Notes under the pieces: model-generated
Told to the model about the DNA's origin: nothing
Databases searched by the model: none
Seen by the model: the letters and a program-made list of their open reading frames with translations, nothing else
Shown here: piece after piece, positions 10,097-21,103 of the stretch
How the letters are laid out: each line of letters opens with the position of its first letter
Position numbering within the stretch: position 1 is the stretch's first letter
Translations under genes and position numbers: made by a program
DNA from: Candidatus Campbellbacteria bacterium
GTDB lineage: Bacteria > Patescibacteriota > Minisyncoccia > Phycocordibacterales > JAXHMZ01
Assembly (NCBI GenBank): GCA_034521025.1
Contig: JAXHMZ010000004.1
Coordinates: forward strand, 41,315 to 105,314
Direction: 5' to 3'
Length of the DNA: 64,000 nt

Positions 10097-11341
10097 ATGG
10101 AAAAGGAACACTTCGCGTGGTACGATTTTCCAATGAGCGCAATGTCATTTAAAGTAGAAAAGAAATTAACCAATACTTTGGGACGAGTCGGTACTATTTC
10201 TACCCCGCACGGAAATATAGAAACTCCGGCTTTTACGTTGGTAGGAACCAAAGGGACAGTTAAAGCGATGACCGCCGAGCAAATAAAAGATGTTGAAGCA
10301 CAAGTTGTTCTAGCTAATACCTATCACTTATATCTTGAGCCGGGAGAAAGAATCGTGGAAAAAGCGGGAGGTATCGGAAAATTTATGAATTGGGACGGAC
10401 CTACTATTACGGATTCAGGCGGCTTTCAAGTTATGTCATTGGGAGGTTCTTTTGGTACTGGTTTGAATAAATTTATGACGAGAGAAGAGCTAGATAGTTC
10501 CGGTGGCTTAAAGCGCGACAAAGCCGAATCATCAGGCCAACTAGCCCGCGTATCAGAAGATGGAGTAAGTTTTCGCTCGCACTTAGATGGAGCTAAACAT
10601 TATCTAACACCGGAGCGTTCTATAGAAATACAACATTCTTTAGGTGCAGACATAATTTTTGCATTTGATGAATGCCCTCCGGCTGACTCAACAAAAGAAT
10701 ATCAGCGCGAAGCTATGGATCGTACTCATAGGTGGGCGGAACGCTGCATTCAATTTCATAGATCTAAAGAGAACAGTGATCATCAAGCGCTTTGGGGTAT
10801 AGTACAAGGTGGAAGTTTTGCTGATTTGCGTACTTTGAGCGCCCGTACTATCAGAGATCTCGGATTTGATGGTTATGGGATCGGCGGATCGTATATGAAA
10901 GAAGATCTGCCAGAAATTCTCGGTATTACTGCTAAAAATCTAGAAGAAGAGAAGCCGCGCCATCTTCTCGGGATCGGCGAGCCCGAAGATTTTTTTATTG
11001 GGATAGAAAATGGTGCGGATACATTTGACTGCGTATCGCCCACAAGACAAGCTCGCAACGGTTCTTTGTATACCCATAAAGGGAGAATAAACATTAAAAA
11101 CAATGCTTTTCGTTCTGATCTTTCAAGTATCGACAGCGATTGTGATTGTTATACCTGCTCGAATTATTCGCGAGCTTATATCTCACACCTTTTCCGCTCC
11201 AAAGAAATGCTGGGTCCAATTTTGGCCACTATTCACAATGCTCGTTTTATCATAAAGCTTGTGGCGGATATTAGAAGTTCTATTTACAACGACTCCTACT
11301 GGAAGTTCAAAGAAAACTTTTTAGATAGTTATTCGCGGTAG
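10097..11341 (+). CDS. tgt: Queuine tRNA-ribosyltransferase.
   Basis: Motifs GRVGTISTPHGNIETPAFTLVGTKG, VLANTYHLYLEPG and DSGGFQ are present. The C-terminal zinc site is CDCYTC...H. Confidence 0.9.
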   Translation: MEKEHFAWYDFPMSAMSFKVEKKLTNTLGRVGTISTPHGNIETPAFTLVGTKGTVKAMTAEQIKDVEAQVVLANTYHLYLEPGERIVEKAGGIGKFMNWDGPTITDSGGFQVMSLGGSFGTGLNKFMTREELDSSGGLKRDKAESSGQLARVSEDGVSFRSHLDGAKHYLTPERSIEIQHSLGADIIFAFDECPPADSTKEYQREAMDRTHRWAERCIQFHRSKENSDHQALWGIVQGGSFADLRTLSARTIRDLGFDGYGIGGSYMKEDLPEILGITAKNLEEEKPRHLLGIGEPEDFFIGIENGADTFDCVSPTRQARNGSLYTHKGRINIKNNAFRSDLSSIDSDCDCYTCSNYSRAYISHLFRSKEMLGPILATIHNARFIIKLVADIRSSIYNDSYWKFKENFLDSYSR

Positions 11342-11372: not shown

Positions 11373-11402
11373 AAATGCTTCAATCTATAGATTGAAGCAT
11401 TT
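11373..11402. repeat. Perfect 30-bp palindrome AAATGCTTCAATCTATAGATTGAAGCATTT; copy 1 of 4.
   Basis: The sequence is perfectly self-complementary. It lies 30 bp after the tgt stop and immediately upstream of the uvrB promoter -35. Further copies are at 27971-28000, 29159-29188 and 32565-32594. Confidence 0.9.
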
Positions 11403-11407
11403 AGCTG

Positions 11408-11436
11408 TTGGAAACTTCCTATTTTTCGCATACAAT
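11408..11436 (+). promoter_or_regulatory. Sigma70-like promoter for uvrB (TTGGAA-17-TACAAT).
   Basis: The -35 TTGGAA is at 11408-11413, the spacer is 17 nt, and the -10 TACAAT is at 11431-11436. This implies a near-leaderless uvrB mRNA with its ATG at 11446. Confidence 0.4.
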
Positions 11437-11445
11437 CAATCCGTA

Positions 11446-13467
11446 ATGACAAAACACTTTCAGGTAGTTTCTAACTACAAACCGGCCGGAGATCAACCGC
11501 GTGCTATAAACGAAATAGTAGAGGCATTTGGGCGTGGAGAAGAAGACGTGACGTTGCTTGGGGCTACCGGAACGGGTAAAACTTTTACTGTTGCAAACGT
11601 TATTGAGGAGATACAAAAACCGACTCTGGTCATAGCGCACAACAAGACACTGGCCGCACAACTTGCCCAAGAATATCGAGAATTCTTTCCCAATAACGCT
11701 GTCCATTACTTCGTGTCTTATTATGACTATTATCAGCCTGAGGCGTATATGCCTGTCTCGGATACATATATAGAAAAAGAGGCGATGATCAACGAGGAGA
11801 TAGAACGTTTGCGCCACGCTTCAACGCAGGCCTTGTTAACGCGAAATGATGTAATAATCGTGGCTTCGGTTTCCTGTATCTACGGTTTGGGTTCTCCAGA
11901 AGAATACGAAAAGAAAAATTTTCGAGTTGATATAGGCGCCAAAATCTCACGCGGAGAATTAGTGAGGCATTTAATAGATGTGTATTTTTCGCGCACGAAT
12001 GCTGACTTAACTCCCGGTACTTTCAGGGCGCTTGGCAACAGTGTGGAAATAATGCCGGTAAACGAACGCTCTATATATCGTTTCAAGTTGTTGGGTTCTA
12101 GTATTTCTAGTATTGAAAAGATCGATGCTACTACGAGAGAAATAATAGAAACTCCGGAAACATTGTTTATTTTTCCGGCCAAACACTTTGTAACCGAGAA
12201 GGATAAACTAGATAAAATAATATCTAAAATCGAAGAGGAGCTAAAGACTCGCGTGAAAGATCTGGAAAAGGAGGGCAAGGTTTTAGAAATAGAGAGACTG
12301 AAACGACGAACTAAGCACGATCTAGCGCTAATTAAAGAAATTGGTTATTGCAACGGTATTGAAAATTATTCACGGCATTTCACCGGGCGCAACGAAGGAG
12401 AGCCGCCGAATACACTACTTTCATATTTCCCCCATAAAGAAGACGGAACACCTGACTTTATGACGGTGGTTGATGAGAGTCACGTAACCATACCTCAGAT
12501 CGGAGGTATGTACGGAGGAGATAGATCTCGCAAGGAAACTCTAGTTGAGTATGGTTTTCGCTTACCTTCCGCTAAAGATAATAGGCCATTGAAATTCGAT
12601 GAATTTGAAAAAAGAGTTAATCCGGTGCTTTATGTTTCAGCTACTCCGGGGCCATATGAAAGAGAAAGGTCAACAACTATTGCCGAGCAAGTTATACGCC
12701 CCACCGGACTTGTAGATCCGAAAATAGATGTGAGAGCGGTAACAGGTACCAGTGATGAAGAGTACCCCGGGCAGATAAAAGATTTTATAAATGAAGCAGA
12801 GGCGGCGATCGAAAAAGGTGAAAGGGTCATAGCTACTACCCTGACCAAAAAGATGGCCGAAGATCTGTCTGAGTACCTGAAAGAACGCGGCTTGAAGTCC
12901 GAGTATCTTCATAGCGAGATAAAGACCATCGACCGGATTGATACAATTACTAATTTTCGAAGGGGTGAATTTGATGTTCTAGTCGGCGTCAACCTACTTC
13001 GCGAAGGATTAGATCTTCCCGAGCTTGCCCTTATCGGTATATTAGACGCCGATAAAGAAGGATTTTTGCGTTCGCAGACAAGTCTTTTGCAAATAATTGG
13101 CCGTGCCGCAAGAAATGTTAATGGACGAGTTATCTTATACGCGGATAGAGTAACTGAATCTATGCAAAAAGCTATAGATGAAACAGATAGGCGCCGTGAA
13201 ATACAGCTCGCGTTCAACAAAGAACATGGAATTACCCCTAAGACGATAGAAAAGAACATTCACGATATCGCAGAGACCATGCGCAGCGAGCACGACAAGG
13301 CGGTAGAAAAACTAGTTGAGCTGGACAGAACAGAATTCAACAAAAATCCTCGCGCGCTCATAAAGGAAAAACGACGCCGCATGGATGAAGCGGTTAAAGA
13401 TCTCGACTTTGAAACGGCGGCGATATTGCGCGATGAGATCTATGCTTTGGAAAAGGAAATGAAATAA
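11446..13467 (+). CDS. uvrB: Excinuclease ABC subunit B.
   Basis: Motifs QVVSNYKPAGDQPRAI and the Walker A LLGATGTGKTF are present. Helicase motifs and a C-terminal UVR domain (AAILRDEIYALEKEM) follow. ATG 11446 (MTKHF...) is preferred over the ORF-finder start at 11392. Confidence 0.9.
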   Translation: MTKHFQVVSNYKPAGDQPRAINEIVEAFGRGEEDVTLLGATGTGKTFTVANVIEEIQKPTLVIAHNKTLAAQLAQEYREFFPNNAVHYFVSYYDYYQPEAYMPVSDTYIEKEAMINEEIERLRHASTQALLTRNDVIIVASVSCIYGLGSPEEYEKKNFRVDIGAKISRGELVRHLIDVYFSRTNADLTPGTFRALGNSVEIMPVNERSIYRFKLLGSSISSIEKIDATTREIIETPETLFIFPAKHFVTEKDKLDKIISKIEEELKTRVKDLEKEGKVLEIERLKRRTKHDLALIKEIGYCNGIENYSRHFTGRNEGEPPNTLLSYFPHKEDGTPDFMTVVDESHVTIPQIGGMYGGDRSRKETLVEYGFRLPSAKDNRPLKFDEFEKRVNPVLYVSATPGPYERERSTTIAEQVIRPTGLVDPKIDVRAVTGTSDEEYPGQIKDFINEAEAAIEKGERVIATTLTKKMAEDLSEYLKERGLKSEYLHSEIKTIDRIDTITNFRRGEFDVLVGVNLLREGLDLPELALIGILDADKEGFLRSQTSLLQIIGRAARNVNGRVILYADRVTESMQKAIDETDRRREIQLAFNKEHGITPKTIEKNIHDIAETMRSEHDKAVEKLVELDRTEFNKNPRALIKEKRRRMDEAVKDLDFETAAILRDEIYALEKEMK

Positions 13468-13492: not shown

Positions 13493-14128
13493 TTGATAAG
13501 TGTTATACTTCGCACTATGGATACCGAAGAGATATTAGATCTCAAGCCCATAGCCGATGAAATTATGTCCATATCGGGTAATACGAAAGGGAATTCTTTG
13601 TATACCGATATGCAGTTTATTCTTGAGCGCAAAGGAGAAGAAGGGCTGGAGGCGCTTGAAGAAGCCCTCTCAGTACTGGGCTATCCGTTTTCTTATAAAG
13701 ACGTAAAGGGATTTGAGTGGTATCCGGAATCACAAGCTGTTTTAGGTATCTTTTTGGCAAAGAAAATTTTCGGCTGGTCCGAAGAAGAAATATTTGATAT
13801 GGGATTCGCGGCGCCAACCTCTTCCTTGTTGGTAAAAACTATAATGCGCTTTATTTCACTAGAACGTACATTTGAACAAGGTCCTTCGGTTTGGAAAAAA
13901 CATTATGATTTTGGCAAATTTGAACCGTTGGAAATAAATAGCTCGGAGAAATATTTGAAATTCAGAGTTTCGGGCTACGGCTTTTTTGATTATATGGAAG
14001 CGTATTTCGAAGGTTTTTTTACAAGACTACTTCAGCTATTGGGCATCGCTGACCTTGAATCGCTTGAAGGAAAACCTTGCAAGGAAGACGCGCATAATTG
14101 TAGAGATTATGATGTTAGATGGAAATGA
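13493..14128 (+). CDS. Hypothetical cytoplasmic protein; paralog 1 of a pair upstream of the HK/RR.
   Basis: It shares WYP, IMRF(I/V)S and VW(K/H)K(H/Y)YDFG motifs with the next ORF. There is no TM helix and no recognised domain. Confidence 0.5.
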   Translation: MISVILRTMDTEEILDLKPIADEIMSISGNTKGNSLYTDMQFILERKGEEGLEALEEALSVLGYPFSYKDVKGFEWYPESQAVLGIFLAKKIFGWSEEEIFDMGFAAPTSSLLVKTIMRFISLERTFEQGPSVWKKHYDFGKFEPLEINSSEKYLKFRVSGYGFFDYMEAYFEGFFTRLLQLLGIADLESLEGKPCKEDAHNCRDYDVRWK

Positions 14129-14802
14129 TGAGTAATAATTTAGAAAAAAAAGAAAACGGAAATTCCCTTGCTCCTTTTCCAAGCGTTTCGACACGTGAGG
14201 AGTTGATCGATCAAGTTAATAATGCATTGGAATGGCAAGAAAATAACAATGGTAGAGTTCGCGGCATTTCTTTGAAGACTGATTCGCTTGGCGCCATCAA
14301 GACAATGTCCGGCAAAGACTCCCAAGAAAAAATTCAGAAGCTTTTGAATGAAATAGATGTTGATTTCGATCTATCTAAAATTCAATCGTACTCCTGGTAT
14401 CCGGCTGCTTATGGTCCGGTAATATATCTTGTCGCCGCTCATCTCTTCTCTTGGGGCCCAAAAGATCTAGAGGAGTTGGGCAGATTGTCGACGCGAGGCT
14501 CAATGCTTATAAAGGTTATAATGCGCTTTGTATCAATGAAAGTCACATTACGTCGTGGCTCTCAGGTTTGGCATAAATATTACGATTTTGGCGATCTTGT
14601 GCCTGTGGAGTATTCTGATGAAGGTTCGTATATTATATTTAAAATCGAGGAATACAATGTGCATCCAATAAACGAGTATTATCACAAAGGATATTTCGGT
14701 GGTATCGTTGAGTTAGTTACGGGCTCAGACAATGTTGTAGTGGAAGTACGGCGTTCGATCTATCAGGGAGAAGAGAGTTCCGAATATAAAATAAGTTGGT
14801 AA
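14119..14802 (+). CDS. Hypothetical cytoplasmic protein; paralog 2, 10-bp overlap with paralog 1.
   Basis: It carries the same conserved block (VIMRFVSMKV...SQVWHKYYDFG). It is translationally coupled to the preceding gene and lies immediately upstream of the histidine kinase. Confidence 0.5.
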   Translation: MEMMSNNLEKKENGNSLAPFPSVSTREELIDQVNNALEWQENNNGRVRGISLKTDSLGAIKTMSGKDSQEKIQKLLNEIDVDFDLSKIQSYSWYPAAYGPVIYLVAAHLFSWGPKDLEELGRLSTRGSMLIKVIMRFVSMKVTLRRGSQVWHKYYDFGDLVPVEYSDEGSYIIFKIEEYNVHPINEYYHKGYFGGIVELVTGSDNVVVEVRRSIYQGEESSEYKISW

Positions 14803-14811
14803 ATATAAAAT

Positions 14812-16365
14812 ATGGCTGAAGATAAAGAAATAGAACGAATGCAGGAAGACCTCGAAGATCTCGAGACCTATCTGCGCGAATATAACGCCTTCTTGCCCCT
14901 GGCGGTTTGTACCGTGAACCCCGTGGGTATACTTATAGACGTAAACTCTGCCTTTGAGAAAATGACCGGTTACTCTGCCATTGAAGGTACCGGAGAGAAA
15001 GTCACTAGGTTTTTTAAGGAATCGGAAAAAATTGATTCTTTTTTGTCACACCTAAAAGAAGGTGACAGTTTTGCGGAAAGCGTTGAAGCTGTTCTGGTTA
15101 AAAAAGAGGGTAAAGAGATCATTGTTAGTGTTACTGCTTCTACGCGTTCGGATCGTGAAGGTAATTTTATTGGTTTCTTTTTGGGAATTAATAATATAAC
15201 CGAGCTAAAGCGCCTACAAAATGAACTAGAAGAAAAGGTTAATGAAAGGACGCAAGATCTAGAGGAAAGAACAAAAGAATTGGAACGTTCTCAGAGAGAG
15301 ATAATGGAAGCGTTCGCGGTAGTTGAAGAAGAAAGGAATAAGACAAGTTCACTGGTTACAAACTTGACCGACGGACTTATCTATACCGACAAAGACGGAA
15401 ATATAGAAATGCTCAACCCGCAAGCTAAAGCAATGCTCAAACTGCATAATGAAGACGTTGAAGGTACGAACATATCTGAACCCACTGACTCTGAGCGTTT
15501 TGAGAAGCTGAGGTCAATGATCTCTCCGGAAAATGAATTAGATAGAGAAACTTTAAATTTTTCTGAAGATTTTATAGTTGAGGTTACAACGGTGACTGTC
15601 AAAAATGACAAAAACAAAGAAACGGGTCGGCTTGTAATTCTTCACGATATTTCTAAGGAAAGAGCTCTCGATAATCTAAAGATAGAGTTCATTTCAGTAG
15701 CTACGCACCAGATGAGGACTCCGCTTTCCGCTATCAAATGGGCTTTCGAAATTTTGCTATCAAGCGATGATGAAAAAATGGCTCCTGATCTAAAGAAGAT
15801 CGCCGAAAACGGCTTTGAATCTACGCAGCGAATTCTCAAGATCGTAAATAACTTCTTGGATGTGGACGCTATGGAGTCTTTGAACGTTGATTATGTTTTT
15901 GCTCCGGTGAGCATTAGTAAGGTCATAGAAAAGATATTTTCCGAGGTTTCAATACAGGCTCGGGAAAAGAGCATAGAGCTAGTTTATAAAAACGAAGGTG
16001 AGAATTTGCCGTATGTCCAAGCGGACCAAGAACAACTTACGGTGGTAATGCAGAACTTGATTGAAAACGCACTCAAATATACAATAGAGGAAGGTAATAT
16101 TACAGTTAAAGCTGAGGTCAAAGATAACAATATGGTTGTCTCAGTTTCCGATGAGGGGATAGGAATTTCAGAAAGTGAATCCGAAAATATATTCACAAAA
16201 TTCTTCCGAGCAGAGAACGCAAAAAGAGTTGAAACTGACGGAAACGGCCTGGGGCTTCATACAGCGAAAAGAATAGTGGAAAAGCATGGTGGCACTATTT
16301 GGTTTGAAAGCCAGATGGGAAAGGGCACCACATTTTATTTTACAATTCCTTTATACAATAAATAA
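14812..16365 (+). CDS. Cytoplasmic PAS-domain sensor histidine kinase.
   Basis: There is no TM helix. A PAS region, a coiled coil and a second PAS-like region are followed by HisKA (SVATHQMRTPLSAIKW) and HATPase_c (GNGLGLHTAKRIVEKHGGTIWFES...GKGTTFYFTIP). Confidence 0.85.
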   Translation: MAEDKEIERMQEDLEDLETYLREYNAFLPLAVCTVNPVGILIDVNSAFEKMTGYSAIEGTGEKVTRFFKESEKIDSFLSHLKEGDSFAESVEAVLVKKEGKEIIVSVTASTRSDREGNFIGFFLGINNITELKRLQNELEEKVNERTQDLEERTKELERSQREIMEAFAVVEEERNKTSSLVTNLTDGLIYTDKDGNIEMLNPQAKAMLKLHNEDVEGTNISEPTDSERFEKLRSMISPENELDRETLNFSEDFIVEVTTVTVKNDKNKETGRLVILHDISKERALDNLKIEFISVATHQMRTPLSAIKWAFEILLSSDDEKMAPDLKKIAENGFESTQRILKIVNNFLDVDAMESLNVDYVFAPVSISKVIEKIFSEVSIQAREKSIELVYKNEGENLPYVQADQEQLTVVMQNLIENALKYTIEEGNITVKAEVKDNNMVVSVSDEGIGISESESENIFTKFFRAENAKRVETDGNGLGLHTAKRIVEKHGGTIWFESQMGKGTTFYFTIPLYNK

Positions 16366-16372
16366 AAAAACA

Positions 16373-16768
16373 ATGGCAGAGGCAAACGATAAAAAAAAGG
16401 TATTAGCAGTTGAGGACGATCTGTTTCTTAAGGAGCTTTTGGCTGGCAAGCTCTCAGATGATGAATTTGATGTATCCTATGCAGCAACCGGGGAAGATGC
16501 TTTGGAGCTGGCGGACTCTGAAAAGCCAGATATTATTCTTCTAGATATACTATTGCCGGGAATGAGTGGTTTTGAAGTGCTAGAAAAACTTAAAGCCGAT
16601 GAAGGCACTAAAGATATTCCGGTAGTGATACTTTCCAACTTCGGTCAAACAGAAGATATTGAAAAAGGTAAATCATTAGGCGCTGTAGATTTCTTGGTGA
16701 AAGCAAATAATTCTCTGGATGCTATAGTTGAAAAGGTTCGAGAGGTTGCAAGCGGAGAGCAATCGTAA
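16373..16768 (+). CDS. Single-domain CheY-like response regulator (receiver only).
   Basis: The ATG is at 16373. The acidic pocket is EDD, and the phospho-acceptor Asp lies in IILLDILLPGMSGFEV. A conserved Lys is present (VDFLVKA). There is no output domain. Confidence 0.85.
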   Translation: MAEANDKKKVLAVEDDLFLKELLAGKLSDDEFDVSYAATGEDALELADSEKPDIILLDILLPGMSGFEVLEKLKADEGTKDIPVVILSNFGQTEDIEKGKSLGAVDFLVKANNSLDAIVEKVREVASGEQS

Positions 16769-16783
16769 TACTCTAAGGCCTTT

Positions 16784-19384
16784 ATGGCTAAAAGATCTTC
16801 TAATAGTAGAGTGAACGCAGAGAAGTGGATCTCTGTACGTGGAGCTCGCACGCATAATTTAAAAAATATTGATGTCTCTTTTCCGCGTGAAAAGATGGTT
16901 GTTTTTACGGGAGTATCAGGATCCGGAAAGTCTTCTCTCGCGTTTGATACGATCTTTGCGGAAGGACAGCGTCGCTACGTGGAAAGTCTCTCTAGTTACG
17001 CGCGGCAGTTTTTACAGCAATTTCAAAAGCCGGATGTAGACGAAATAACTGGCCTATCTCCGGCTATTTCTATTGATCAAAAGGCGCAATCCAGAAATCC
17101 ACGCTCTACCGTAGCAACTATCACTGAAATTTATGACTATCTAAGAGTGCTGTTCGCGCGCATAGGCAGACCGCATTGTTTAGTATGTGGGCGAGAAATT
17201 CAAAAACTTTCGCTCGAAGAGATCAAAGAATTCATATTCGAGGGTGTAAAAAAAGAAGAAGATGCTCAATATGTTGAAATTTTTTCGCCGGTAGTTCGTG
17301 GACGAAAGGGTGAGTACTACCAACTGTTATATGATCTTTTATCTGAAGGATTCGAGGAAGTAATTATTGACGGAAATAGAAAAAAATTGCGCGAGAGGAT
17401 AGTTTTGGAGAAAAATAAAACTCACGATATTTCTGTTTTGGTGGACAGAATAGAAGTTCAAGATTTTAAGGATGACTTCAAGTCCGCCGATGAAAGATTG
17501 TCGGAATCAATTGAAAGATCGCTCGAGGAATCCGGCTCCTTGGTGCATGTCGTTTATGGGAGCGAAAAGACTCCGATAATGTCGGATCGTATTTATTCCT
17601 CACAATTTTCTTGTCCGCACGATGGTTATTCGTATCCTGAGGTAGAGCCCAGATTATTTTCCTTTAATTCTCCCTATGGCGCTTGTGAGGTCTGTAATGG
17701 TTTGGGGACAAAATTTTATGGCAGTGACGAGCCGTGCGAGCAATGCGACGGTACCAGATTGCGCGAAGAAGCATTGAATGTTTTTGTATTCTCCAAAACT
17801 GAACCCAAAAAATCCAATATAGTAGACGTAACAAAACTATCGATTGATTCTGCCATAGAATATGTGTCCAACTTGGATCTGACTGAAAAAGAAGCGGAAA
17901 TAGCCAAACCAATACTGCGCGAAATTGAACTACGCTTGAAGTTTATGGAAAATGTCGGGATAGAGTATCTGACGTTGAATCGTCGCGCCAAAACTCTCAG
18001 CGGTGGAGAGGCACAGAGAATAAGACTAGCTTCTCAGCTGGGTTCGGGACTTGTGGGAGCGTTATATGTTCTCGACGAGCCAACGATCGGTTTGCACGCG
18101 AGGGACAACGATAGGTTGGTACAAACTCTTTTGCGGCTTCGCGACCTCGGCAACACCATAATCGTAGTAGAGCATGATGAAGATACTATATTCTCTGCTG
18201 ATTATCTGGTTGATATCGGGCCAAAGGCAGGTGTGCATGGCGGAAAAATTGTAGCTTCGGGGTATATAGATGAACTTATAAGCGGCGATTCTGATCACGA
18301 TTCTTCTACTCTTGCGTACCTGCGCAAAGAAAAAGAGATCCCAACACCGAAACGTCGCCGAAATCAAAACAAAGGAGACATAAAGATCCGAGGTGGCAAT
18401 ATTCACAACATAAAGAATCTCAATGTAAATCTGCCATTAGGTAAATTGGTAATGGTAACCGGTGTGTCGGGGTCAGGAAAATCTTCTTTTGTTTATGACA
18501 TTTTGCATAAAAACTTAGAAGCTCGCTTCAACAAACGCAAGAGGATCAATAAGGTATATAACGCCAAAGAGTTTTTAGGTACTGAATATGCCGGCCGGGC
18601 GGTACTTATAGATCAATCTGCTATCGGTAGGACAAGCAGATCCAACCCCGCTACCTACACTGGTGCTTTCGGTCACATTCGCGATCTTTTTGCCGCTACC
18701 ACGGAGGCGCAGGCGCGGGGCTGGAAGCCGGGCAGATTTAGTTTCAATGTTAAAAACAGCGGACGGTGCGAGGCGTGTCAGGGAATGGGCGAAATCGCTA
18801 TCGAGATGCACTTCCTGCCGACTGTTCATGTTAAGTGTGACGTTTGTGACGGGAAGCGTTTTACAAAGGAAACTCTTGAAGTTAAATACAAGAAGAAGAA
18901 TATTTATGAAGTCCTTGAAATGACAGTAGAGGAAGGGCTGGCGTTTTTTGAAGATATTCCGGCTATATTTGACCGTTTCAAAACTCTTGATGATGTGGGT
19001 CTGGGCTACTTAAAAATTGGCCAGTCAGCTACAACTCTTTCCGGAGGAGAAGCTCAACGCGTAAAAATTGCCTCTGAATTGTATCGACGGCACACTGAAA
19101 AAACAGTTTATCTTTTAGATGAACCTACGATCGGGCTTCACTATGAGGACGTAGAGAAGTTGATCGAGATCCTTCAGAGACTAGTCGACAGAGGGAACAC
19201 GGTAGTGGTGATCGAGCACAATATGGATATTATTAAATCTTCTGATTATATTATTGATATCGGTCCAGAAGGGGGTGAGGCAGGAGGTAAGATAGTAGCC
19301 AAGGGTACGCCAGAAGATGTGGCGCGCGTGCAAGAATCGTATACCGGACAATATCTAGCGAAAGCGCTAAAGAAGAAAAAATAA
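16784..19384 (+). CDS. uvrA: Excinuclease ABC subunit A (compact form lacking the insertion domain).
   Basis: There are two ABC modules with Walker A GVSGSGKSS at both positions and signature LSGGEAQR at both. Zinc modules are present. Only about 10 aa separate CNGLG from CEQCDGTRLR, where E. coli UvrA carries the ~110-aa insertion domain. Confidence 0.9.
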   Translation: MAKRSSNSRVNAEKWISVRGARTHNLKNIDVSFPREKMVVFTGVSGSGKSSLAFDTIFAEGQRRYVESLSSYARQFLQQFQKPDVDEITGLSPAISIDQKAQSRNPRSTVATITEIYDYLRVLFARIGRPHCLVCGREIQKLSLEEIKEFIFEGVKKEEDAQYVEIFSPVVRGRKGEYYQLLYDLLSEGFEEVIIDGNRKKLRERIVLEKNKTHDISVLVDRIEVQDFKDDFKSADERLSESIERSLEESGSLVHVVYGSEKTPIMSDRIYSSQFSCPHDGYSYPEVEPRLFSFNSPYGACEVCNGLGTKFYGSDEPCEQCDGTRLREEALNVFVFSKTEPKKSNIVDVTKLSIDSAIEYVSNLDLTEKEAEIAKPILREIELRLKFMENVGIEYLTLNRRAKTLSGGEAQRIRLASQLGSGLVGALYVLDEPTIGLHARDNDRLVQTLLRLRDLGNTIIVVEHDEDTIFSADYLVDIGPKAGVHGGKIVASGYIDELISGDSDHDSSTLAYLRKEKEIPTPKRRRNQNKGDIKIRGGNIHNIKNLNVNLPLGKLVMVTGVSGSGKSSFVYDILHKNLEARFNKRKRINKVYNAKEFLGTEYAGRAVLIDQSAIGRTSRSNPATYTGAFGHIRDLFAATTEAQARGWKPGRFSFNVKNSGRCEACQGMGEIAIEMHFLPTVHVKCDVCDGKRFTKETLEVKYKKKNIYEVLEMTVEEGLAFFEDIPAIFDRFKTLDDVGLGYLKIGQSATTLSGGEAQRVKIASELYRRHTEKTVYLLDEPTIGLHYEDVEKLIEILQRLVDRGNTVVVIEHNMDIIKSSDYIIDIGPEGGEAGGKIVAKGTPEDVARVQESYTGQYLAKALKKKK

Positions 19385-19403
19385 AGACCGACAATTCGTC
19401 GGT

Positions 19404-19772
19404 CTAGTTGAAGGCTTTTGTTTGGTGCTTCGTGTAGTGTTCGTAAAGGAAAAGTATCAGGTCTAATCCATCAAGTTTCCAGAAGGACTTGAAATCGTGG
19501 TAGGTACTTTCGGTAACGACAAGCGAGCCTTCTTTGGAAAACTCTTCAAACTTCTCCAGTTCCTTAACGGCATGCTCAAACTCAAACGAGTTAAGAGGCA
19601 TTAAGTTCTTTTGATCGTCCGGTCCATAAGAAAAGACGATCCATTCGTACACCTTGATCTCGCATCGTCTGCACTTCCGTACATTGGGTTTCCACGGTCT
19701 GTTTTCTTCAAGTCGCCAAGCTTGAGTCAGGGGCTTTTTACAAACCGGGCAAGGCACCGCTGTGTTTGTCAC
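19404..19772 (-). CDS. Hypothetical zinc-ribbon protein.
   Basis: Cys pairs CPVC...CRRC are present. It is the lone minus-strand gene between uvrA and uvrC. Confidence 0.4.
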   Translation of the reverse strand: MTNTAVPCPVCKKPLTQAWRLEENRPWKPNVRKCRRCEIKVYEWIVFSYGPDDQKNLMPLNSFEFEHAVKELEKFEEFSKEGSLVVTESTYHDFKSFWKLDGLDLILFLYEHYTKHQTKAFN

Positions 19773-19822: not shown

Positions 19823-21103
19823 ATGTCAATTTCTAAAAAATTAATTAAAAGTATTGCCAAGCTTCCTGAATCTCCCGGGGTGTATTTTTTTCATGGCGCA
19901 AAAAGTGAAATCCTTTACATAGGTAAAGCTACTAGTCTTCGTGACAGGGTGAAGAGCTATCTTTCCGGTGATCTTTTGGATACTCGCGGTCCATTAATTA
20001 ACAAGATGGTAGGAGAGGCAGAAAAGGTAACTTATGTAGAGACTGATTCTGTGTTAGAGGCGCTAATCCTTGAAGCCAATTTAATAAAAAAACATCAGCC
20101 GGAATACAATAGTCGCGACAAAGACAACAAGAGCTGGAATTTTGTAGTTATAACGAACGAAAAATTTCCCAGGGTTCTAATAGAACGCGCGCGTACTCTG
20201 CCGGAACGGTTTGGTGAAGAAGACATCAAATATCAGTTCGGGCCTTTTACTTCCGGCTCAAATTTGCGAAGGGCGCTCAAAATAGTACGGAAACTATTTC
20301 CGTTTCGTGATAAGTGCACACCGTTTGTTGAGCTTACAGAAAAACAGAAAGACAAAGCACGAAAGTGCTTTAACGCCCAAATCGGGCTTTGTCCGGGCGT
20401 GTGCGTTGGGGAAGTCGATAAAAAGGAATACGCGCGAAACATACAGCATATTAAACTTTTCTTTGAGGGGCGGAAAAAAGCACTTATCAGATCTTTGGAG
20501 CGTGATATGAAAAAAGCTGCAAGATCGGAGAATTTTGAAAAAGCTGAAAGTATAAAACGTACTCTTTTTGCCCTTGACCACATCAACGATACGGCGCTCA
20601 TTTCAAGAGAGGAAGACATAGATAGCAAATACGCGAAAGATAAATCGGCGGTTCGAATTGAGGGATATGACGTATCGCATTTTGGCGGGTCTGAAACAAT
20701 CGGGGTTATGGTGGTAGTGGAAGACGGTTATAGCAAAAAAAGCGATTATCGTCGTTTTAAGATCCGCAATTCTAAATCTGGAGATACGGGTGCCCTAGAA
20801 GAGATATTGGAAAGACGCTTTAAGCATGATGAGTGGCAAACCCCTGACGTTCTCGTAACTGACGGAGGACGTGCTCAGCTCAACGTGGCTAAGAGGGTTG
20901 TCGGTAATCTCGAAAACGATAAAAAAGAGCGGATAAAAGTCGTTTCAGTAGTAAAGGATGAAAAACATCGTCCGCGGGAGATCATTGGATCAGACAAAAA
21001 GGTGATCGAAAAATACAACGCTGAGATACTTCTTGCGAACAGCGAAGCTCACAGATTTGCTATAGCCTTCCAGAAAGAACGCCGCAAGAAAGGATTTATA
21101 TAA
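19823..21103 (+). CDS. uvrC: Excinuclease ABC subunit C, short form (GIY-YIG + UVR + RNase H-like endonuclease; no C-terminal HhH2).
   Basis: The GIY-YIG domain shows GVYFFHG...ILYIGKA. A UVR motif lies around FEKAESIKRTLFAL. The endonuclease domain shows IEGYDVSHFGGSETIGV. The protein ends without helix-hairpin-helix repeats. Confidence 0.8.
   Translation: MSISKKLIKSIAKLPESPGVYFFHGAKSEILYIGKATSLRDRVKSYLSGDLLDTRGPLINKMVGEAEKVTYVETDSVLEALILEANLIKKHQPEYNSRDKDNKSWNFVVITNEKFPRVLIERARTLPERFGEEDIKYQFGPFTSGSNLRRALKIVRKLFPFRDKCTPFVELTEKQKDKARKCFNAQIGLCPGVCVGEVDKKEYARNIQHIKLFFEGRKKALIRSLERDMKKAARSENFEKAESIKRTLFALDHINDTALISREEDIDSKYAKDKSAVRIEGYDVSHFGGSETIGVMVVVEDGYSKKSDYRRFKIRNSKSGDTGALEEILERRFKHDEWQTPDVLVTDGGRAQLNVAKRVVGNLENDKKERIKVVSVVKDEKHRPREIIGSDKKVIEKYNAEILLANSEAHRFAIAFQKERRKKGFI

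Follow-up and report, generated by a model that had tools for sequence, protein, structure and literature searches.

Organisation of the module

Two paralogous genes, whose products (P1 and P2) are on record as hypothetical proteins by exact sequence matches, lie between uvrB and uvrA in a 64,000-nt stretch of a Candidatus Campbellbacteria genome (contig JAXHMZ010000004.1, positions 41,315 to 105,314), referred to here as the window. They are followed by genes for a histidine kinase (HK) and a response regulator (RR). The reading favoured here, and held to be fairly probable, is that P1 and P2 are partner sensors of the H-NOX/V4R fold that control the adjacent kinase, in a module likely to be co-transcribed with uvrB and uvrA. 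A listing of open reading frames (ORFs) and Pfam scans place tgt, uvrB, P1, P2, a PAS-PAS kinase, a receiver-only regulator and uvrA in one co-directional row on the + strand, confirming the gene order from uvrB to uvrA that a first-pass annotation had given. The module and its two flanking genes are as follows.

11392–13467, + strand: uvrB, upstream flank of the module (Pfam UvrB, UvrB_inter, Helicase_C, ResIII, UVR)
13517–14128, + strand: paralog 1 (P1), 203 aa counted from ATG 13517 (ORF from TTG 13493)
14119–14802, + strand: paralog 2 (P2), 227 aa (further in-frame ATG codons at 14125 and 14128)
14812–16365, + strand: soluble PAS-PAS-HisKA-HATPase histidine kinase, 517 aa (Pfam PAS_9, HisKA, HATPase_c)
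16373–16768, + strand: receiver-only (CheY-like) response regulator, 131 aa (Pfam Response_reg, residues 10–121)
16784–19384, + strand: uvrA, downstream flank of the module (Pfam UvrA_inter, four ABC_tran)

The ATG at 13517 is more likely to be the start of P1 than the TTG at 13493, and the junction with uvrB measures 49 or 25 nt depending on which is chosen. P1 and P2 overlap by 10 nt if P2 begins at ATG 14119, by 4 nt (ATGA) from 14125 or by 1 nt from 14128; the NCBI annotation gives P2 as a 224-aa form. The gaps that follow are 9 nt (P2 to HK), 7 nt (HK to RR) and 15 nt (RR to uvrA). A longer regulator, corresponding to the 160-aa ORF from 16286, was rejected because the regulator orthologs are only 130–143 aa in length. 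No further copy of the kinase, the regulator or either paralog was found in the 64-kb window.

Fold and family of the paralogs

P1 and P2 are 27% identical over 184 residues (E = 6e-30), and both carry the block IMRF(I/V)S...VW(K/H)K(H/Y)YDFG, at residues 109–133 of P1 and 134–158 of P2, so that the paralogy and the conserved block described in the first-pass annotation are upheld. Neither protein matched a Pfam family at E < 0.1. Nothing in NCBIfam scored above cut-off, the one faint match being that of P2 to TIGR02265 (E = 0.097; 12.5 bits against a cut-off of 25), which covers only the C-terminal 40 residues and has no equivalent in P1. Searches of PADLOC and of PDB sequences with P1 and P2 returned nothing useful, and a profile of the family gave only marginal matches to MopR among PDB sequences (E about 0.5).

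Structure models made with AF2 (AlphaFold2) were confident, with predicted local distance difference test (pLDDT) scores of 93.7 and 94.2 for the two paralogs; an N-terminal extension of about 25 residues in P2 had low model confidence. The best structural matches, over the full length, are H-NOX proteins. The models show both the N-terminal helical and the C-terminal alpha/beta subdomains of the H-NOX fold, as well as the alpha/beta core of V4R/Bet3, and the modelled fold of P1 and P2 is that of the H-NOX/V4R/Bet3 superfamily.

The extent of the family was examined by an exhaustive phmmer search with P2 as query, which returned 378 cluster representatives at E < 1e-3, of which 232 pass E < 1e-10. 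Of the 150 best matches listed, nearly all are stand-alone proteins of about 200 aa, and two join a pair of these domains in tandem. The named sources are all Patescibacteria (Campbellbacteria, Paceibacterota, Nealsonbacteria, Pacebacteria, metagenome-assembled genomes (MAGs) labelled "Saccharibacteria", and Patescibacteria group), and every member with a named source is annotated as hypothetical. When 118 members were scanned singly, 47 matched Pfam V4R (PF02830; best E 4.6e-9), no other Pfam family was matched by more than one, and none matched HNOB or DUF2378 at E < 0.01. The link of P1 and P2 to V4R is transitive: they have no direct match themselves, while homologs joined to them at E values down to 1e-60 do. 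Judged from these sequence relationships, P1 and P2 are divergent members of a large V4R-related family, which corrects the earlier statement that their conserved block matches no recognised domain. In architecture they are closest to H-NOX, whereas the detectable sequence signal is closest to V4R. Of the folds that had been put forward for checking (H-NOX, V4R and globin-like), a small-molecule or gas sensor fold of the H-NOX/V4R type was found, but globin-type ligation is not indicated.

Coupling of sensors to the kinase among relatives

About 35 non-redundant loci were found via the paralogs and analysed by tblastn; they are cited below by number (L001 and so on). In at least 11 of them the sensor array adjoins an ortholog of the kinase (about 520 aa, 34–64% identity over its length), which is then followed by one or two receiver-only regulators. 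The reverse test started from six kinase orthologs on long contigs, picked by kinase similarity alone (36–46% identity). In all six, a member of the sensor family ends 2–10 nt before the kinase start or overlaps the kinase. Because every one of these independently chosen kinases adjoins a sensor, the sensor–kinase gene pair is a conserved unit.

The kinase-coupled module occurs in two settings, and wherever enough flanking sequence is available repair genes lie beside it. The type B order, tgt-uvrB-[one to four sensors]-HK-RR-uvrA-(small ORF)-uvrC-ddl, is seen in the window, L001–L005, L012, L019 and L054, with UvrB identity down to 65% where measured. Orthologs of uvrB (65–81% identical) lie directly upstream of the module in L001–L005, L012 and L019, and in L054 a gene for a 260-aa REC protein stands between uvrB and the module. 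Orthologs of uvrA (61–82% identical) hold the same position in L001–L003, L012 and L019, the uvrA of L054 being recognised by Pfam UvrA_inter; uvrC is kept after uvrA in L001–L003, L012 and L054. The neighbourhood is therefore kept in relatives, which answers the synteny check proposed at first pass. The type A order is T2SSE(-)-tsaE-5′-3′ exonuclease-[accessory genes]-[one to three sensors]-HK-RR-RR-fpg-holA-S20(-)-uvrB(-)-Mur ligase, the accessory genes being of HAMP, FIST, PAS-only or flavodoxin-like type. It is present in full or in part in at least eight loci (L015, L032–34, L036, L044, L049/50, L055–59), with uvrB present in L044, L055 and L057, and fpg missing from L059.

The family is usually tandemly multiplied, up to five or more copies per array. 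The kinase-adjacent sensors of type A loci are closest to P1 (37–40% identity), and the P2 clade is restricted to Campbellbacteria and Paceibacterota. Among close relatives, L002/L003 have a single P1-like copy, L012 has four copies of P2-like type and L019 four of P1-like type. An obligate P1–P2 heterodimer was rejected, since relatives carry only P1-like or only P2-like copies. What had been described as a module with paired paralogs stands as regards the recurrent adjoining of sensors and kinase (six of six orthologs), but the pair of paralogs is not a fixed unit, the copy number ranging from one to four.

Several further features of these arrays were noted. Five sensor copies each are found in L017 (3905–6937, a Nealsonbacteria MAG) and L048, and eight in L025; in some of the large arrays PAS-only and FIST genes stand between the sensor genes, and for some there is no kinase within reach. 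HAMP-containing, FIST and PAS-only genes lie upstream of the sensor–kinase pair in the type A loci L055 (5029–6348), L057 (3815–4690), L059 (4066–6367) and L032 (6309–6944). A segment of about 40–60 aa, 51–61% identical, is common to the HAMP-type and PAS-only proteins. In L055, the only locus where this was seen, the segment matches the coiled-coil linker between the PAS domains of the kinase (window HK residues 131–159; 59% over 29 aa), which hints that the HAMP-type and PAS-only proteins may dock on the same signalling helix. In L058 (3886–6400), genes for a flavodoxin-like protein (435 aa) and a FAD/NAD-binding oxidoreductase-like protein (394 aa) lie between the 5′-3′ exonuclease and the sensor, and are a possible redox accessory to the module.

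Kinase and regulator

The kinase carries its H-box histidine at His299 and all of the N, G1, F and G2 boxes at 418–482. No transmembrane segment was found in it, the most hydrophobic window lying inside PAS1. At E < 1e-60 it has 822 homologs, those listed being about 500–615 aa long. The regulator has an acidic pocket (E14/D15/D16), the phospho-acceptor D58, and S88 and K110; no Pfam domain besides Response_reg was detected, and its orthologs in L001–L003 and L012 are 77–80% identical. The catalytic motifs predicted to serve phosphorelay are thus intact in both proteins. A LOV or photoreceptor kinase was dropped as a candidate since PAS1 lacks the NCRFLQ cysteine motif, and a defence system since the PADLOC matches were only generic HATPase and REC similarities.

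Zinc and heme sites

A tetrad of the form C-x22–25-E-x2-C-x7-H is complete in 70 of the 109 family members outside the two clades of the window, the individual columns being occupied by Cys (88), Glu (86), Cys (90) and His (77). Its spacing is the same as in the zinc sites of V4R domains (XylR/MopR/PoxR/DmpR) and of the Shewanella oneidensis H-NOX. The V4R site, C149/E172/C175/C183, is established for PoxR, MopR and DmpR, and for XylR comes from a model (bioRxiv 10.1101/2021.01.17.427014); that of S. oneidensis H-NOX is C139/H161/C164/C172 (PMC7108781). In P2 none of the four positions is kept (E186, V210, S213, S221), and in P1 one is (E161, G185, C188, R196), with C195 and H193 nearby. The tetrad is lost in every sensor copy of the type B loci and kept in the kinase-adjacent sensors of the type A loci examined, except L057. 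Conserved ligands of the kind sought at first pass (His/Cys/Tyr) are represented in most of the family by the Cys/Glu/Cys/His tetrad, but they have been lost in P1 and P2. Two tandem two-domain fusions, P0008 (410 aa) and P0010 (405 aa), have an intact tetrad in both halves, and suggest that family members may pair with each other.

The proximal histidine is absolutely conserved in H-NOX proteins (PMC7108781). Its register in the family was set by offset from the shared alphaG glycine (Thermoanaerobacter tengcongensis G143 = P2 G191) and from the zinc-site cysteine, no structural superposition being used; the T. tengcongensis H-NOX sequence was verified as identical to 1u4h. An hhalign comparison of the family profile with this protein, not significant at a probability of 0.2%, served for the register only. 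Both counts place the expected histidine at about P2 residue 150, where a V or Y is found, followed by the nearly invariant Trp151, and His occurs in columns 145–153 in at most 6 of 118 members. At the end of helix alphaF, column 154 has His in 55 of the 118 and Tyr in 39, corresponding to His129 of P1 and Tyr154 of P2. The YxSxR propionate motif is replaced by (F/Y)179-x-hydrophobic-H182-P183 (P2 numbering). The heme ligands of H-NOX thus appear to be missing in P1 and P2, making heme an unlikely cofactor. The residue at column 154, including His129 of P1, may have a role in a cofactor site or pocket; in the window the relevant positions are 13625–13633 (P1 His129 and its neighbours) and 14578–14580 (P2 Tyr154).

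Probable transcription unit and neighbouring features

The flanks of the module contain four further features.

10097–11341, + strand: tgt (ORF listing)
19385–19405, no strand assigned: palindromic GC-rich hairpin of 9 pairs, directly after the uvrA stop, sequence AGACCGACAATTCGTCGGTCT
19404–19772, - strand: small ORF, 122 aa, between uvrA and uvrC
19823–21103, + strand: uvrC, short form of 426 aa, in the conserved uvr block (Pfam GIY-YIG, UVR, UvrC_RNaseH_dom)

A consensus scan of the + strand found no terminator in any intergenic gap from uvrB to the hairpin after uvrA. The hairpin probably terminates transcription from both directions and is likely to mark the 3′ end of the unit. The tight spacing of the genes, together with the lack of an intergenic terminator, suggests co-transcription of the module with uvrB and uvrA, and a single transcript carrying P1, P2, HK and RR along with the two repair genes appears the most likely arrangement. 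The sequence, with its short gaps and overlaps and its terminator pattern, is compatible with the single operon proposed at first pass. An RNA leader or riboswitch before P1 was also considered and dropped, an Rfam scan at E < 0.1 showing none upstream of P1 and, as its sole match, a chance viral pseudoknot at the uvrA terminator.

The products of uvrB, uvrA and uvrC all show the diagnostic Pfam domains of a UvrABC excision-repair cluster. In the uvrB ORF an ATG (MTKHFQVV...) lies 18 codons after the opening TTG (11392–11445); as it matches typical UvrB N-termini, this ATG, near 11446, is probably where translation really begins. The 426-aa UvrC has GIY-YIG, UVR and RNase H-like endonuclease domains and lacks the C-terminal (HhH)2 domain; short forms of 423–433 aa are common to the relatives (L001, L002, L054). 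The 122-aa ORF on the - strand is convergent to uvrA and shares the hairpin with it. Its product has a zinc-ribbon-like N-terminus (CPVC...CRRC), with no PADLOC match and no significant Pfam match (one was faint and sub-threshold). A counterpart, 34–37% identical, occupies the same place in L001–L003, and is absent in L012 and L054.

Comparison with known systems

The gene arrangement resembles that of H-NOX and its kinase HnoK in S. oneidensis and Vibrio cholerae, in which a stand-alone sensor gene is co-oriented with that of a cytoplasmic kinase; in the window the gap is 9 nt. When H-NOX is encoded beside a kinase, its NO-bound or ferric state inhibits HnoK autophosphorylation, and heme-free V. 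cholerae H-NOX inhibits HnoK after oxidation of its zinc-bound cysteines (PMC7108781). Unlike H-NOX, the module sensors lack the proximal His, the YxSxR motif and any HNOB profile match; they occur in tandem, in one to four or more copies, and those of the window lack the zinc site. The kinase differs from HnoK in having two PAS domains of its own, and the regulators are bare receivers whereas the Hno system has PDE/HD-GYP effectors.

Compared with V4R proteins (PF02830; XylR/DmpR/MopR/PoxR, archaeal MJ1460, BchJ), P1 and P2 fall below any V4R threshold and lack the tetrad. In contrast to V4R of the XylR type, they have an N-terminal helical half more like that of H-NOX, and are free-standing beside a kinase and not fused to an AAA+/sigma-54 activator. 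TRAPP Bet3 and the Asgard TRAPPC3-like proteins are scaffolds of a vesicle-tethering guanine nucleotide exchange factor (GEF), machinery that has no counterpart here, and their structural match is clearly weaker than that of H-NOX. The Myxococcus paralogous family TIGR02265/DUF2378 shows only the faint C-terminal similarity to P2 already described, and no scanned member reaches DUF2378. The N-terminal sensor domains of the AraC regulators VirS and CdpR differ from P1 and P2 in being fused to DNA-binding domains.

Proposed mechanism

The mechanism that we infer, from the sensor–kinase interaction, its direction and its ligand to co-transcription and any effect on repair, starts from the fold, the family membership, the loss of metal and heme ligands, the intact catalytic motifs and the sensor–kinase pair in its two settings. 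P1 and P2 would be stand-alone cytoplasmic sensors that lack heme ligands and that, in the lineage of the window, have lost the ancestral zinc site. Each would hold a small, likely hydrophobic ligand, or adopt a signal-dependent conformation, in the cleft between the N-terminal helical and C-terminal alpha/beta subdomains. They probably act as homo- or heterodimers, given that tandem fusions exist and that members of the superfamily dimerise via their N-terminal helices (PMC10933270). The sensor would bind the adjacent soluble PAS-PAS kinase and either raise or lower autophosphorylation at His299; the kinase would hand the phosphate to Asp58 of the regulator, and the output would be exerted through protein–protein contacts. 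For type A lineages, oxidation of the zinc-thiolate site is the candidate signal. That site is gone in the window lineage, so a bound small and probably hydrophobic ligand is the best guess there. The module would be an old unit, found in many Patescibacteria, that in the lineage of the window came to lie inside a uvrB–uvrA block. The earlier idea of a signal-binding accessory feeding the kinase is partly supported by the sensor fold and by the gene coupling to one kinase subfamily, but heme or globin-type ligation is not indicated.

Several points weigh against this reading. The zinc tetrad is the most concrete sensing mechanism available, yet it is missing from both copies in the window. With two PAS domains of its own, unlike a typical HnoK, the kinase might sense signals unaided. 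Close relatives differ in how many sensor copies they have and of which type, which argues against a fixed P1–P2 heterodimer. No kinase is in reach in L006–L011, L013, L017, L027–L029, L037–L043 and L048; because many members lack one, the fold must also have roles independent of a kinase. In Patescibacteria little weight can be given to scans for promoters and terminators, and an internal promoter may lie in the 49-nt gap before P1. Finally, the linkage to repair consists of two synteny classes and is suggestive, possibly reflecting inherited gene order in compact genomes.

Alternative explanations

It is highly improbable that P1 and P2 bind heme as genuine H-NOX proteins and sense NO or O2. 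The full-length structural matches, the classic placement of a sensor beside a kinase and the position of P1 His129 at the end of helix alphaF, in a column that is His in 55 of 118 members, speak for it. They are opposed by a proximal-His region that reads V/Y-W, where Trp151 is invariant and His is very rare, by a column 154 in which His is exchanged for Tyr and which is displaced by about one helical turn from the register, by the replacement of YxSxR, and by the failure of both HNOB (0 of 118) and hhalign to recognise the family. The paralogs could also be unrelated to the kinase, carrying ligands or serving as scaffolds in the way suggested for BchJ-type V4R proteins or TRAPP Bet3, with their position a by-product of compact genomes. 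Many members do stand alone or in arrays of at most five copies at loci without a kinase, next to genes for glycosyltransferases, a NiFe hydrogenase, MacB or AddB/RarA, and other members of the superfamily have non-signalling roles (PMC10933270). The AddB/RarA genes beside the sensors of L006 are within chance expectation, and no enrichment of repair genes around the family in general is claimed, the kinase-less members lying in unrelated contexts. This explanation seems improbable, however, as a sensor abuts the kinase start in six of six independently sampled kinase orthologs, and the sensor–kinase pair persists in two quite different settings while its surroundings change.

The module might instead be a dedicated DNA-damage or oxidative-stress system. 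Its sensors would respond to an oxidant, to a nitrosative agent or to a metabolite related to damage, and the phosphorylated regulator would act on UvrA, UvrB or RNA polymerase and so tune excision repair. The repair genes that flank the kinase-coupled module wherever the flank is long enough are consistent with this, uvrB being near it in all type B and three type A loci. So are the Cys/Glu/Cys/His site of the type A kinase-adjacent sensors (L057 excepted), whose equivalent in V. cholerae H-NOX is a thiol oxidation switch that inhibits the kinase (PMC7108781), and the flavodoxin-like and FAD-oxidoreductase-like genes of L058. Yet there are only two independent synteny classes, and unconnected housekeeping genes (tgt, tsaE, S20, ddl, Mur ligase) are mixed into both. 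The regulator lacks any DNA-binding or enzymatic domain, the redox-capable site is gone from the sensors of the window, and family members elsewhere adjoin unrelated genes. Such a system is possible but unlikely. A bolder proposal, in which the module is the main DNA-damage and oxidative-stress pathway of many Patescibacteria, is rather improbable. In that proposal zinc-thiolate sensors would, in most lineages, report oxidants as heme-free V. cholerae H-NOX does, and receivers would act directly on repair or replication proteins, namely UvrA/UvrB, Fpg, the 5′-3′ exonuclease and the clamp loader; the module would have moved into the uvrB–uvrA operon in Campbellbacteria and Paceibacterota, where zinc-less sensors diversified to another damage-related signal. 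A functional link of the module to repair appears plausible, and that its physiological role concerns DNA damage or oxidative stress is considered less likely than not. Partner sensors that control the adjacent kinase remain the preferred explanation of P1 and P2.

Significance

Patescibacteria, the candidate phyla radiation, have very small genomes and few regulators, and to our knowledge almost nothing is known of how they sense their surroundings. A search of the literature turned up no account of either the sensor family or the module. What is new is a heme-free, tandemly expanding and Patescibacteria-specific branch of the H-NOX/V4R proteins, coupled to one PAS-kinase subfamily and lodged in repair clusters. 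A fold and a likely role can be assigned to several hundred clusters of "hypothetical" proteins, and a sensor–kinase–regulator module is recognised that keeps its core across distant relatives and lies among DNA-repair genes in both of its settings. The functional steps beyond fold and synteny are those that we infer. If the sensors do control the kinase, the partner-sensor principle of H-NOX would extend to heme-free proteins in an entire superphylum, and if the output touches excision or base-excision repair, this would be a new form of repair regulation that operates without a DNA-binding regulator. The branches with and without the zinc site offer a natural comparison for the study of thiol-based redox sensing.

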